Under the pieces are notes generated by a model. The model did no database searches, was not told where the DNA came from, and saw only the letters and a list, made by a program, of their open reading frames with translations. A DNA stretch of 64,000 nt from Leptospira sp. (GTDB taxonomy: Bacteria; Spirochaetota; Leptospiria; Leptospirales; Leptospiraceae), in contig JAWXAQ010000005.1 of NCBI GenBank assembly GCA_034439575.1, positions 32,001-96,000 of the forward strand, read 5' to 3'. Positions 2,405 to 16,058 of the stretch are shown in pieces (the stretch's first letter is position 1; the number at the start of each line of letters is the position of its first letter). The translations under genes and the position numbers were made by a program.

Positions 2405-3928
2405 GTGGATACAATACGGATAGGTGCCAGATCTTCTACCCTGTCGAAACTCCAAGCAATTTCTGTCGGTCAAAAGTTGATCGAGAAAAATCAAAATTTG
2501 AAAATCGAATATTTCTTTCGTGAAACCTTGGGAGATAAAAATTTAGAAGCCCCCTTACAAAGTTTAAGTGGCCAAGGTGTTTTTACTCGCGAATTAGAAG
2601 ATGATTTACACACAAATAAAATAGATCTCATCGTTCATTCATGGAAAGATTTGGATTTAGAAGAAAGGCCAGGAAGTAGTATATTCTCTGTTTTGCCAAG
2701 AGCTGACCAAAGGGATCTAATACTTTTCAAACCAGAAATAAAAACATGTTCAGAAATCCAGATTCTAAGTTCATCACCCAGAAGAACGTACCAATTACAT
2801 TCTTTTTTGAAAGATCACCTTCCGCTATCGTTGCGATCAAAAGATATAAATTTTGTTTCGGTACGAGGGAATATACAAACGCGTCTTAAAAAATTCTTTA
2901 ATTCAGAATCTACGGGAATCGTCATCGCAAAAGCTGCTATCGATCGTTTGCTGACTCCTATTCTTTTAAAAGAATATAAGGAAGAGTTTCTCCGCACATC
3001 AGAATTTGTAAGGGAGTCATTAAATCAATGTTTGTTTATCATTCCTCCACTTTCCATTTGTCCCAATGCACCAGCGCAAGGTACTTTGGCCGCACAAATT
3101 AGAGAAAATGATGAGAAATTAGCTAATTATCTCAAAGAAATTCAGGATATGGAAACAGAAACTTGTTCTGTCAAAGAAAGAGAAGCGCTTAGAAAATATG
3201 GAGGCGGTTGTCATCAAAAAATCGGAGTGAGTTATCTGATTCGTCCATACGGGACCATTGAATACACCAATGGTGAAACGGAGGACAATATACAAATTTC
3301 AGAGCGCAGAATTTTAAATACAAAGATTCAAAAATTTCACAGATCAGAAGTTTGGCCACCTAATGCAAAGATGGCGGGAAGGCAAAGAGAAAGATTAGAT
3401 TTTAAAATTCCTCCAAATTCCAATTTTTTTGTAGGAAGGGGTTATGCTTTTCCATCCGATTTAATCATACATTCCCCAAAACAAATTATATGGACAGCGG
3501 GCCTTACCACTTGGAAAGATTTAGCAAATAGGGATGTCTGGGTAAATGGAACAGTCGATGGTCTCGGTGAAGCGGAACCAATTGGCATAGATACTATGTT
3601 AGGCTATAAAGCAAATTTTGTAAAACTCTCACATGCAGACTCTGATTCTAATTTTAGTCAATACCCTCTTATTTCTACATACCGAGTTTCTTCCCCTGAA
3701 ATTCCTTCCGATTTTGATCCTTCGAAAATCAAAGCCGCTTTTTGGCGAAGTAGCACGGAATACGAAATCATTACAAAAAAATATCCCGAACTTAAAAGTG
3801 TGATTCATTTTGTCGGTCCCGGTTCCACATATACTAAACTAAAGCGAGAATTAGGTAAACAAGCAGAATCCAGGATATTCGTATCTCTTTCCTATGAAGA
3901 CTGGCATGCAGAAAATACTTATGAATAA
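2405..3928 (+). CDS. hemC: Hydroxymethylbilane synthase with long C-terminal (HemD-like) extension, copy 1
   Basis: IRIGARSSTLSKLQ, GVFTRELE, VHSWKD, SSPRR, RGNIQTR, GGGCHQ cofactor Cys; GTG 2405 preferred over TTG 2360. Confidence 0.9.
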   Translation: MDTIRIGARSSTLSKLQAISVGQKLIEKNQNLKIEYFFRETLGDKNLEAPLQSLSGQGVFTRELEDDLHTNKIDLIVHSWKDLDLEERPGSSIFSVLPRADQRDLILFKPEIKTCSEIQILSSSPRRTYQLHSFLKDHLPLSLRSKDINFVSVRGNIQTRLKKFFNSESTGIVIAKAAIDRLLTPILLKEYKEEFLRTSEFVRESLNQCLFIIPPLSICPNAPAQGTLAAQIRENDEKLANYLKEIQDMETETCSVKEREALRKYGGGCHQKIGVSYLIRPYGTIEYTNGETEDNIQISERRILNTKIQKFHRSEVWPPNAKMAGRQRERLDFKIPPNSNFFVGRGYAFPSDLIIHSPKQIIWTAGLTTWKDLANRDVWVNGTVDGLGEAEPIGIDTMLGYKANFVKLSHADSDSNFSQYPLISTYRVSSPEIPSDFDPSKIKAAFWRSSTEYEIITKKYPELKSVIHFVGPGSTYTKLKRELGKQAESRIFVSLSYEDWHAENTYE

Positions 3929-11899: not shown

Positions 11900-12973
11900 T
11901 TTTTCACCGCCATACTTTTTGCACAAACATACGTTATATACTTTTCCTTCATGGCTTTCAAGAATTAATTTCGCTAGAAATTCTATAAAAGGAGGATAAA
12001 TACCTAATGCTGGAATGCGATGATAAGAACCTGCACCTGCCTTTAATGCGATCTCTTTAAGTTCCACACCGATTTCTTCTAGTGTCTCTAGATGATCACC
12101 GACAAAACTTATTGGATAAACAACAATGTTTTTCCTTTTTCCACCTAATTCGCGCAAAACGTCTTTTGTGTTCGGTTCTGTCCATTTAGCTCGACCTACT
12201 CGACTTTGAAATGATAAATGATGGCTCCCATAAAAACCTAAAGATCTCAATTTTGTTAAGATGTTTTCAATCATCTCATTCAATTGAATTACATACATGT
12301 CTCCTTTATCTATCAATCGCATCGGAATACCATGTGCAGAAAAGACTAAGTCTACATTTTGCCAATTCAGAATTGAATTTGGAGAATCAAAATGAGGATA
12401 ATCCATCTCATTTAAGTTATTTGTAAAATAATCATATATAAACTGACTAGTAATGTTAATAAACCTGGAATCTAGTCCAAAGGGTTCAATCCAACCTTCA
12501 TTGGACATTGGGCATACGCCTGTTAAAGATTGGTAGATAGAAGCAGTTGAAAGTACCGTGGATCTAGAAAATTGAGGGTACAATGCTAAGTGAATATTAT
12601 CTTTATTTGGTTTATTACTTTTGTTTACAAAGTCTTTGATATTGGGTGCGCCACATGCCATGAGAATATTTCCAGACCAATTATCACCCGTCATTTGATC
12701 TAAAACTTCTTTAATCCCAATTAGTTGTTTATTTGTTTCATCAAACAAGGGAGATCCGCCGCCATAACCCATAGAAGCATATGTTTTTTTTACTTTTTTA
12801 GTTCTAGTCTTTGCAATGAAAATGGCTAATAATTTTCGTATCGGTTCCCATAATGGTAAATCAAAAACATATGGATCAAGAAACAGATCCAATAGAAATT
12901 TTTCAATTTCATTTTCATTCCTTGGGCCACCTAGATTCAAAAGAGTAAACGTTTTAATTTTTGTTTGGTTCAT
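11876..12973 (-). CDS. hemH: Ferrochelatase
   Basis: LLNLGGP, GGGSP, LYPQFS, FSAHGIP, FQSRVG..WTEP, FVGDHLETLEEI; ATG 12973 preferred. Confidence 0.96.
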   Translation of the reverse strand: MNQTKIKTFTLLNLGGPRNENEIEKFLLDLFLDPYVFDLPLWEPIRKLLAIFIAKTRTKKVKKTYASMGYGGGSPLFDETNKQLIGIKEVLDQMTGDNWSGNILMACGAPNIKDFVNKSNKPNKDNIHLALYPQFSRSTVLSTASIYQSLTGVCPMSNEGWIEPFGLDSRFINITSQFIYDYFTNNLNEMDYPHFDSPNSILNWQNVDLVFSAHGIPMRLIDKGDMYVIQLNEMIENILTKLRSLGFYGSHHLSFQSRVGRAKWTEPNTKDVLRELGGKRKNIVVYPISFVGDHLETLEEIGVELKEIALKAGAGSYHRIPALGIYPPFIEFLAKLILESHEGKVYNVCLCKKYGGEKLAGCHLD

Positions 12974-14855
12974 AAGATACAAAGTCACACTGCGGATATC
13001 TAGAACAAAAATAAATAGTTTTTCCGTTTTTAGAAAATTTACTTCTTACTTCCCCGCTCCCACATATTGGACAAATTGATTTCTGAATACTTTCCTTTTT
13101 TTCTGTAACAAATGTTTGGGCTTTAGCATCCTTGCTTTTTATTGATTCTGCTTTAGTAGGCTCAGTGGAATATTTACCTTTTTTTAATTTTAAAACTGTT
13201 TTATAAAAAGAATCTATGAGTTGAATTTTATCGCCAATTCCGTTGGCTAGATCATCCAATGAACTTTCCATATTCTTTGTGAATGTTTCACCAATTAACT
13301 CTGAAAAGTTATTAATTAAAAATCCATTCACATTTTCACCTAATCTAGATACACCTAACCTAGATTTAACTTCCAATATATACTTACGTTTTTTTAAAGT
13401 TTCTAAAGTTTGAGAATATGTAGATGGTCGTCCAATCCCAGTTTTTTCCATCTTAGCGATAATTTGACCTGGAGTATATCTTTCCTTAGGTGATGTTACT
13501 TTATTCTCAACTAAGAATTTTTGGCAAGGGAATACATCTCCGATTTTGATTTTAACTTGTTTCTTTTCTAATAACTTATCAGAGTTATAAAAATCTTTAT
13601 AACCATTTGAAACTACTTCCCTTTGGATACGTTTCCACTTTTCTCCCTTAGATTCAAAGATAAAACTATGATCAATACCTTTTTCAGGAGCCAGTAAACT
13701 CGTCATTAGTCTTTGCCATATTAAATTATAAATTGCAGATTCATCTTTTGTTAAAAATTGTTTGATTCTCTCCGGAATTAATCTAGGATCAGTCGGGACA
13801 ATGGCTTCATGAGCATCTTGTGCATGTAACTTTGATTTGTTAGCCGTCTGATTTATTATCTCAAGTTTCGGAAAGTTTTCCCTAAGATACTGCGTAGCTA
13901 ATTTCTTTTTTGCATCTGAAACCCGAGTAGAATCAGTTCGCATATAGGTAATCAAACCAAATATCTCACCATTCACTTTTTTTCCCTCATATAAGGCTTG
14001 GGCAATTCGCATCGTTTGCGTGGGATTTAAATTTAAAACTTTAGCGGCTGTTTCTTGCAAACTTGCAGTCGTAAATGCTCGAGGTGCATTGTTAGTGAAT
14101 TTTTTTGTTCCCATTTCAATCGATTGAAATGGAACTTCCTTTTTAAGAGAACCATCTGGATTCACTTTAAAAAGTTCTAATAGTTGATTAGATTTCTCTT
14201 TATTTAATCTGCCTTCTTCCTCTTCTAAAAGATAATTAAGTTCCCACTCACCATCTTTTGTATTTATGATAGCTTTTAAAGAAACGTATTCTTCGGGATT
14301 AAAATTTCTAATTTCAATTTCGCGTTCACATAACCATTTCAATACGGCGGATTGAACTCGACCAGCAGACAAACCTGATATTTTTAAAACTTTCCATAAA
14401 ACAGGTGAAATTTCAAATCCAAATATACGATCGATCAGTCTTCGACAAACTTGAGAATTAACTAAGGAAATATCGATATTTCCAGGCTGTTTTAGGGATT
14501 CTAATAATTCTTTTTTTGAAATTTCTTTCAGACGAAGTCGAAATTTTTTGGCTTTAACAGATCCCAGTTCTTCTGAGATATGCTCTGCGATCATCTCTCC
14601 TTCCCGATCTGGGTCAGAGGCGATATAAATGACATCAGCATTTTTTGCTTTAGTTTTTATAGAAACAAATAATGTTTTTTTACCTTTTAACCATTGATAA
14701 ACGGGAGTAAAATTGTTTTTAAAATCAATACCATATTCTTTTGGGGGAAGGTCCTTGAGATGACCTTTGGTGGCAAAGACTTCCCAATCTTTATCTAAAT
14801 AAGATTGAAGAGCCTTTGCCTTTGTGGGAGATTCGACAATTAGAAGTTTGGTGAT
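12954..14855 (-). CDS. topA: DNA topoisomerase I, probable ATC start
   Basis: 87 in-frame codons upstream of ATG 14594 encode LIVESPTKAK..GH..DPDREGE (TOPRIM); also SAGRVQ, LITYMRTDS, AHEAI, GIGRPSTY and a C-terminal Zn ribbon. Confidence 0.93.
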   Translation of the reverse strand: MTKLLIVESPTKAKALQSYLDKDWEVFATKGHLKDLPPKEYGIDFKNNFTPVYQWLKGKKTLFVSIKTKAKNADVIYIASDPDREGEMIAEHISEELGSVKAKKFRLRLKEISKKELLESLKQPGNIDISLVNSQVCRRLIDRIFGFEISPVLWKVLKISGLSAGRVQSAVLKWLCEREIEIRNFNPEEYVSLKAIINTKDGEWELNYLLEEEEGRLNKEKSNQLLELFKVNPDGSLKKEVPFQSIEMGTKKFTNNAPRAFTTASLQETAAKVLNLNPTQTMRIAQALYEGKKVNGEIFGLITYMRTDSTRVSDAKKKLATQYLRENFPKLEIINQTANKSKLHAQDAHEAIVPTDPRLIPERIKQFLTKDESAIYNLIWQRLMTSLLAPEKGIDHSFIFESKGEKWKRIQREVVSNGYKDFYNSDKLLEKKQVKIKIGDVFPCQKFLVENKVTSPKERYTPGQIIAKMEKTGIGRPSTYSQTLETLKKRKYILEVKSRLGVSRLGENVNGFLINNFSELIGETFTKNMESSLDDLANGIGDKIQLIDSFYKTVLKLKKGKYSTEPTKAESIKSKDAKAQTFVTEKKESIQKSICPICGSGEVRSKFSKNGKTIYFCSRYPQCDFVSYEPNKN

Positions 14856-14868
14856 ACCTTACTCCGAA

Positions 14869-15783
14869 TTAAACAAACAATCCATCTACAGACAAATATC
14901 TTTCTCCCGTATCATAGCAGAAAGTAAGGACCTTCGATCCCGCAGGAATTTCTTTTAGTTTTTTTGCAACAGCTGCTAAACTTGCTCCAGAAGAGGCGCC
15001 GATAAAAATTCCTTCTTTTTTTGCTATCGTAACGGCCATGTTAAACGATTCGTCTTTTCCAACAGTAATGATCCCATCCAATAATTCTGTTTTACAATTT
15101 TTTGGGATAAAGCCTGCCCCAATTCCTTGCAATGGATGCGGGCCTGGTTTTCCACCGCTTAACACTGGTGAGCCTTCTGGTTCTACAGCAAATACTTGTA
15201 ATTTTGGAAATTTCTTTTTTAGAATTTCTGCACAACCAGAAATGTGTCCACCTGTACCTACACCAGTAATCAAGTAGTCCAATCCATCTGGGAAATCTTT
15301 CGCAATTTCTTCAGCAGTAGTCTTTCTATGAACATCAATGTTCGCATCGTTTTCGAATTGTTGTGGCATCCAAGCATTTGGATTTGAAGCAACCATTTCA
15401 GTCGCTTTTGCTATCGCACCAGGCATTCCCTTTTCGCGAGGAGTGAGTTCAAAATTGGCACCATAAGCGGCCATGATACGTCTGCGTTCTATCGACATAT
15501 GTTCCGGCATAACGAGTGTAATAGGGTATCCTTTAACACTTGCAACCATGGCAAGACCAATGCCCGTGTTTCCCGATGTCGGTTCGATGATAATAGAATT
15601 TTTTGTCAATTTGCCTGACTTTTCTGCATCTTCAATCATAGCGAGTGCGATACGATCTTTGATGGATCCACCTGGATTTTGTCTTTCTAACTTCAACCAT
15701 ACTTCATGACCTTCGCCAAAAAGTCGGGACAAACGAATGTGTGGGGTATTGCCTATAGCATCCAATATGCTGTTAAATTTCAT
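14869..15783 (-). CDS. cysK: Cysteine synthase A
   Basis: [35 protein letters not shown] 15783 has a GGAG SD. Confidence 0.96.
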
Positions 15784-16058
15784 AATAACTCCGATAGAGA
15801 TAATACTAGAAGGAAATGAGTTTTTGTCCACGAAGAAAATTTGGAAGATTCCCTAGTTCTTCAAAAAAAGAATGAATGAAAATTACTATATGATATATAG
15901 GAAGTTTCAGAAAATCAATTCAACGTTAGTCGACAAATATTGTAACTAAAAAAATCAATTCCAGGAAGTGATAACACGAAATCCTTGAACCAAATTTAAG
16001 TTATGTGCAAATTTGAAACTACGGTAAGTGAAAAATTAAATTTTTATAATGCTAAATA

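Follow-up and report, generated by a model that had tools for sequence, protein, structure and literature searches.

A conserved near-cognate AUC codon as the probable translation start of topA in saprophytic Leptospira

Introduction

Near-cognate start codons are already known as a kind in bacteria, and the text of the preprint by Hecht et al. (10.1101/063800) names infC and pcnB as the only confirmed non-canonical starts of Escherichia coli. Here we describe topA, the type IA topoisomerase gene on the minus strand of a 64,000-nucleotide stretch of a Leptospira sp. genome (assembly GCA_034439575.1, contig JAWXAQ010000005.1, positions 32,001 to 96,000; hereafter the window, with position 1 as its first letter), which is likely translated from an AUC codon. 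Like infC and pcnB, both of which start with AUU, topA is a housekeeping gene that pairs a near-cognate AUH start with an ordinary Shine-Dalgarno (SD) element, for which an output of a few percent of that from AUG would be expected. In the passages of the preprint devoted to E. coli reporters, AUC, AUU, AUA and CUG gave 1-2% of the output of AUG, or 0.02-3% with a second reporter, and proteins initiated at AUC and ACG carried an N-terminal Met (10.1101/063800). The Leptospira gene differs in that its codon is AUC, not AUU, and in that no feedback loop is evident. The circuit of initiation factor 3 (IF3) built on an AUU start, to which the initial annotation of this DNA had appealed as an analogy, is not present in that form; infC of this genome, which lies outside the window (contig C33:154228 onward, plus strand, locus L111), begins with an ATG directly behind a TGA and has a good SD sequence, GGAG, 5 nt upstream. 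The possible link of supercoiling to the fidelity of initiation by way of IF3, raised in the initial annotation, finds no support in this analysis.

A second point of comparison is provided by gene pairs coupled through termination and reinitiation. According to sections of a study on native gene pairs of E. coli and Haloferax, reinitiation falls by 40-80% when the gap is +14 nt and is almost lost at about 20 nt; a stop-to-start distance of -8 to +10 nt serves there as the predictor of coupling (PMC10666635). The window topA resembles such pairs in lying tightly behind a co-directional gene, cysK, and in one congener the two genes overlap as ATAA. In contrast, the topA start is near-cognate and retains an SD-like element, and the gap (+13 nt for the window genes, +23 nt for those of 11 congeners) falls outside the range given in those sections. 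A full-text literature search, which did not cover the supplementary start tables of Hecht et al., turned up no report of topA starting at a non-canonical codon, whether in Leptospira or elsewhere among bacteria. We regard topA as a new and unusually well-conserved example of a near-cognate start.

Results

The proposed topA coding sequence (12954-14855, minus strand) comprises 633 codons; it opens with ATC 14855 and closes at the stop in 12956-12954. On the minus strand its 5' end reads TAA GGT ATC ACC AAA CTT CTA ATT GTC GAA TCT CCC, a stop followed by GITKLLIVESP. The ATC at 14853-14855 is proposed as the near-cognate start codon by homology to the start codons of relatives, and the frame is closed by an in-frame TAA at 14859-14861; a single codon, GGT, separates this stop from the ATC, where the initial annotation had counted two. 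Its further observations, that the 87 codons upstream of ATG 14594 contain no ATG, GTG or TTG and that an SD-like GGAG (14862-14865, minus strand) precedes the ATC by 6 nt, are borne out by the window sequence, in which no such codon occurs anywhere in the topA frame between the upstream stop and codon 88. That codon, the ATG at 14592-14594 (minus strand), is the first canonical in-frame start and the one used in the mechanical list of open reading frames (ORFs). It is also the first codon of the database product of this gene (P0001), a 546-aa protein without the catalytic Glu and the acidic cluster. The initial annotation had placed this ATG after the whole TOPRIM domain, and it does lie behind both the catalytic Glu (codon 8) and the DPDREGE motif, but it still falls inside the Toprim match.

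Read from the ATC, the protein has the domain layout of a type IA topoisomerase. Pfam matches Toprim at residues 4-112 (E 6.2e-17) and Topoisom_bac (PF01131) at residues 127-546 (E 2.8e-96). A possible zinc ribbon (PF01396) at residues 594-630 scores 27.8 bits against a cut-off of 32 bits, and the last 80 residues hold one CxxC. The ES, DPDREGE and LITYMRTD motifs are all present, and by reference to E. coli TopA we take the Tyr of LITYMRTD to be the active-site tyrosine. Residues 2-152 align with residues 6-154 of Thermotoga TopA (2gai), and no other type IA topoisomerase match was found in the window genome. These features indicate that topA is functional and that the genome carries a single copy of a type IA topoisomerase gene.

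To place the ATC among relatives, we searched the genomes of 41 species from the same GTDB genus and obtained a topA match in 40; the 5' end was read in all 40. By protein search these relatives are saprophytic Leptospira, including L. ognonensis, L. kobayashii, L. idonii and L. vanthielii. The remaining genome, G033, gave no match to the TopA protein or to PF01131; judged by uppP, rnhB and sdhA, it is the nearest species to the window, and its assembly is 95% complete in 130 contigs, so its topA gene is probably unassembled. The codon five before the [ILV][ILV]ES motif is ATC in 33 of the 40 genomes, ATT in three and ATA in one (G032), where it overlaps the cysK stop as ATAA. G029 reads AAT ACG at this point, and the ACG, one codon downstream, is its sole start candidate with a single mismatch. 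Two genomes, G034 and G031, have a TTG six codons further upstream, inside the end of cysK; setting this pair aside leaves the 38 genomes that we refer to as near-cognate. In these 38, the frame does not reach a canonical codon until codon 16 to 153, always past the catalytic Glu at codon 8, while the ES, DPDREGE and LITYMRTD-type Tyr motifs are intact in all 40.

The sequence on either side of the aligned codon behaves differently. Downstream, codons 2-5 keep a Thr-Lys/Asn-hydrophobic-hydrophobic pattern while their third bases vary, behaviour that points to coding sequence. The stretch between the upstream stop and the ATC spans 1-13 codons, of which the window has only GGT, and is not conserved as protein. 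The finding that the initial annotation had named as refuting its reading, an ATG at this codon in all relatives, was not obtained: the near-cognate codon is conserved across the genus, and congeners lack an ATG at that position. In a quick maximum-likelihood tree of TopA (50 rows, LG+G4; long branches, deep order unsure), the genus forms one clade with support of 99. Because near-cognate starts occupy the basal part of this clade, with the TTG pair nested among them, the near-cognate start appears ancestral, with one return to a canonical codon.

Sister genera supply the canonical counterparts of this codon. A family search gave matches in 113 of 114 genomes, and 5' ends were taken for 110 of the 113 (G054, G104 and G105 were left out). 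Among 13 other genera, each of the 70 loci offers an ATG, GTG or TTG that lies at most 12 codons from the [ILV][ILV]ES motif with no stop between. The canonical codon sits at exactly the aligned position in all 22 loci of genus g12, as GTG, and in all 22 fetched loci of genus g13, as ATG. The correspondence can be followed codon by codon: G088 reads ATG ACC AAA CTT CTA ATA GTC GAA where the window reads ATC ACC AAA CTT CTA ATT GTC GAA. In genus g4, cysK lies directly upstream of topA in four of five genomes (loci L044, L045, L047 and L048), and these loci offer canonical candidates: a TTG that follows the cysK stop at 1 nt, or an ATG within the cysK end. Overall, the alignment with ATG and GTG of sister genera, the SD-like element and the presence of ATC, ATT or ATA in 37 of 40 species support the initial annotation's placement of the topA start at ATC, and on these comparisons the ATC start is well supported and ancient.

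A G-containing purine element (AGGA, GGGA, GAGA or GGAG, read by eye) precedes the start by about 6-9 nt in the 38 near-cognate genomes. The 16S rRNA 3' end of two congeners is GGATCACCTCCTTT with the anti-SD present, and ordinary SD pairing therefore applies; a 16S 3' end was not found in the assembly of the window genome. We considered a hairpin that would hide the SD element, since GGAGU can pair with ACUUC, but its z-score was -0.81 and 37 of 200 shuffled sequences were as good. RNAalifold on the 38 sequences around the topA start likewise predicted no pairs. The hairpin was therefore rejected, as the start region shows neither a stable nor a conserved RNA fold. An odd initiator tRNA that relaxes start selection is ruled out, because that of the window genome is canonical, with C1 opposite A72 and three G-C pairs in the anticodon stem. 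As a separate observation, the start and second codon together, ATCACC (14850-14855 in the window), are nearly invariant in the genus and have the same sequence as part of the 16S rRNA 3' tail rather than its complement (loci L225 and L226, ~2990-3000); no function is apparent, and the match may be due to chance.

The genome was also scanned for other genes with unusual starts, by looking among 3254 coding-like ORFs for those in which at least 30 coding-like codons precede any canonical start. Only seven ORFs have leaders of 80 or more codons, and when leader length is multiplied by dicodon coding score, topA comes second. Pfam was run on four candidates, for one of which it found no family, and the remaining rows of the top 12 were judged by eye to be shadow frames. 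A genome-wide loosening of start choice was rejected, as topA, rnhB and uppP are the only credible cases with leaders of this length.

Both of the other two genes lie outside the window. The first, rnhB (RNase HII; contig C22:83135-83839, plus strand; locus L134, 636-1340), has its DEAGRG motif upstream of any canonical codon. Its aligned codon is ATA in 28 of 30 genus loci, with one ATC and one CTA ATT in the others, and within the 42 codons shown no canonical codon occurs in 29 of the 30. In the sequences read, this ATA overlaps the stop of rplS (ribosomal protein L19), as ATAG in the window genome and as ATAA elsewhere. The second, uppP (undecaprenyl-diphosphatase, BacA/UppP; contig C27:347194-348066, plus strand; locus L133, 495-1367), has a CTG at the aligned position, separated by 2 nt from the stop of a preceding ORF without a Pfam match. 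This uppP codon is CTG in the seven species nearest the window, ATG in 22 and TTG in one.

The arrangement of topA behind cysK bears on how ribosomes might reach the AUC. The upstream gene, a cysK-like gene for a PLP-dependent enzyme by Pfam (PALP; 14869-15831, minus strand), ends with a TAA at 14871-14869, 13 nt before the ATC. We infer a single cysK-topA message because this 13-nt gap leaves no room for a promoter or terminator. An RNA contig (X18) spans 14834-15038 and so includes 21 nt on the topA side, too short a stretch to count as support for such a message; it shows 9 differences, 3 of them unlisted. Fusion of CysK and TopA by frameshifting or read-through was rejected, as the frame relation is 0, 1 or 2 depending on the species and many species have two consecutive stops (TAA TAG). 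Two side observations concern this junction. An ATG at 14885-14883, within the last cysK codons, is in frame with topA, and its mini-frame MDCLFNSE (14859-14885, minus strand) is closed by the TAA that lies 3 nt ahead of the ATC; this ATG is not conserved in the genus, and most congeners lack it. Where the spacer is 23 nt (loci L020, L021, L023, L025, L028-L031, L034, L036 and L037), it resembles, by eye, an 11-nt tandem copy of the cysK end (TTTTCGTTTAAT then TTTTGTTTGATGGG) with the SD-proximal copy kept.

Such proximity raises the possibility that most ribosomes arriving at the ATC have only just terminated on cysK, making TopA a fixed small fraction of CysK with a minor part for the SD element; this would change the mode of initiation, not the start site. 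In all 40 genomes cysK ends between -4 and 23 nt before the aligned codon, with the ATAA overlap in G032, and the other near-cognate genes are similarly placed, with ATAA or ATAG overlaps of rnhB and rplS across the genus and the uppP CTG close behind a stop. Parts of a review further describe downstream genes that stay silent unless coupled, owing to a weak affinity for the 30S subunit (PMC12548453). The spacing itself argues the other way, however. The cysK end lies at -4 nt in one genome, 10 nt in two, 12-18 nt in 26 and 23 nt in 11, and the 11 species with the widest gap nevertheless keep ATC or ATT plus an SD-like element. That this element is kept at normal spacing, as judged by eye, points to independent initiation. 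We therefore hold it somewhat doubtful that reinitiation is the main route to the AUC, and coupling to cysK translation, although possible, does not appear to be required.

Discussion

The best explanation of these observations, and one we consider likely, is that a functional topA is translated from AUC at 14855-14853 and that the weak codon acts as a fixed step-down of TopA. The AUC would presumably be read by initiator tRNA as fMet, with GGAG 6 nt upstream positioning it in an unstructured, A/U-rich stretch, and topA would most likely be translated from the cysK-topA message. The weak codon would have replaced the ATG or GTG of sister genera before the radiation of the saprophytic Leptospira genus. 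As a fixed step-down, it would yield few TopA molecules per message and a low ratio of TopA to CysK. Low TopA output through AUC is plausible on this analysis.

Several points weigh against this explanation. A promoter may lie inside cysK, and the values of start strength are those of E. coli, not Leptospira. G029 has neither ATN nor NTG at the aligned codon, and at least one species therefore starts topA differently. Low output may also be tolerated rather than selected for. The third base of the ATC changes three times on the tree, compared with 2-14 times for 14 other conserved Ile columns, and three of those 14 also change three times or fewer. Given this ordinary third-base conservation of the start column, special selection for ATC over ATT is not supported. 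The only point in favor of selected weakness is qualitative and comes from related, non-independent species: a one-step C-to-G change would give ATG and be silent for the protein, yet not one of the 38 near-cognate genomes has it.

A weak start might instead have no regulatory role, having been slightly deleterious or neutral when it was fixed in an ancestor and tolerated since little TopA is needed. The ordinary third-base conservation favors such a history, as do the drift of the codon among ATC, ATT, ATA and ACG and the regain of a canonical TTG in one lineage. So does the fast evolution of TopA, as would be predicted for a protein under weak constraint or made in small amounts: identity of the window protein to those of 29 congeners (loci L002-L030) is 47-58%, compared with 86-93% for the adjacent CysK and 94-98% for the SdhA N-terminus. 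TopA is the fastest-evolving of the proteins compared and unusually fast for a housekeeping topoisomerase, with all catalytic motifs kept. In contrast, the silent restoration of ATG is absent from all 38 genomes although divergence has changed half of the protein, and the SD-like element and its spacing are kept, as read by eye. On balance, a weak start devoid of any role is possible but strikes us as rather unlikely.

Public annotations bear on a different alternative, in which translation begins at the ATT of codon 6 (14838-14840, minus strand), five codons downstream of the ATC, to give MVESP.... This codon is equivalent to the start in public annotations of relatives, and it is likewise near-cognate. 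Among 37 related public proteins compared (P0002-P0038), ten begin there, as MVESP or MVVESP at ATA or ATT, nine begin at about codon 16 (MASYL or MSSYL) and the others at later canonical codons; none of the 37 uses the conserved codon 1. Records of saprophytic Leptospira topA, among them those of L. ognonensis, L. kobayashii, L. idonii and L. vanthielii, thus resemble our proposal in already beginning at non-canonical ATA, ATT or ATC codons, and they implicitly recognize the lack of a canonical start, which annotation pipelines solve inconsistently. They differ from it in that their starts cut off part of the first Toprim strand or the catalytic Glu. Beyond this mutual inconsistency of public starts, no purine-rich element precedes the ATT, and the aligned codon is GTT in G018 and G009 and CTT in G029. 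Initiation at codon 6 is also at odds with the coding behaviour of codons 2-5, with sister genera that begin at the codon aligned with ATC, and with the Toprim profile and solved TopA structures, which align from residue 2-4. Taken together, these points make a start at codon 6 very improbable.

The last alternative is that the ATC reflects an error of sequencing or assembly, or that topA is a pseudogene yielding no more than the 546-aa fragment begun at ATG 14594. It could draw on the origin of the genome as a metagenome assembly and on another conserved gene of this genome, which carries one or more private in-frame stops. It is nonetheless next to inconceivable and already refuted by an ATC common to 32 other species and to contigs of other samples and by 87 upstream codons with intact catalytic motifs in 40 of 40 genomes; this gene is also the sole type IA topoisomerase match. 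The contigs in question settle the assembly error that the initial annotation had itself named as a possible explanation: a DNA contig of another sample (X4) spans 14500-14880 with no differences, and one from lake water (X11), from another study and habitat, spans 14838-15084 with two differences, neither at the ATC. The private stop provides a contrast case, unlike the pattern at topA. It lies in a gene for an SdhA/FrdA-like flavoprotein (contig C22:112177-114102, plus strand), the fourth candidate of the scan for unusual starts, that has a normal ATG and an in-frame TGA at 112222-112224, codon 16, before the FAD-binding motif. The other 40 genus genomes are open at this position, with 94-98% identity, and the TGA is either a nonsense mutation private to this genome or a mistake in the consensus of the metagenome assembly.

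Returning to translation from the AUC, a broader and frankly speculative extension, which we think unlikely, would treat near-cognate starts as step-down valves for scarce DNA and envelope enzymes encoded behind presumed strongly translated genes. The cases would be topA behind cysK (AUC), rnhB behind rplS (AUA) and uppP behind an unnamed gene (CUG), with the topA valve held for the whole radiation of the genus. TopA dosage, and hence the balance of supercoiling, would then be set by the stringency of start selection, through IF3 and ribosome status, and not by a promoter of its own, and the fast evolution of TopA would be a consequence of low expression.

For the species concerned there is a practical consequence in gene models, as the public ones for topA place its start at no fewer than three sites, all of them wrong-looking. 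Few non-canonical starts have been confirmed in bacteria, and an essential topoisomerase with an AUC-type start across some 38 species would offer a clean natural case in which to ask whether weak codons are selected as dosage controls. Together with topA, the placement of rnhB behind rplS and the CTG of uppP suggest a testable rule on where near-cognate starts arise in operons.

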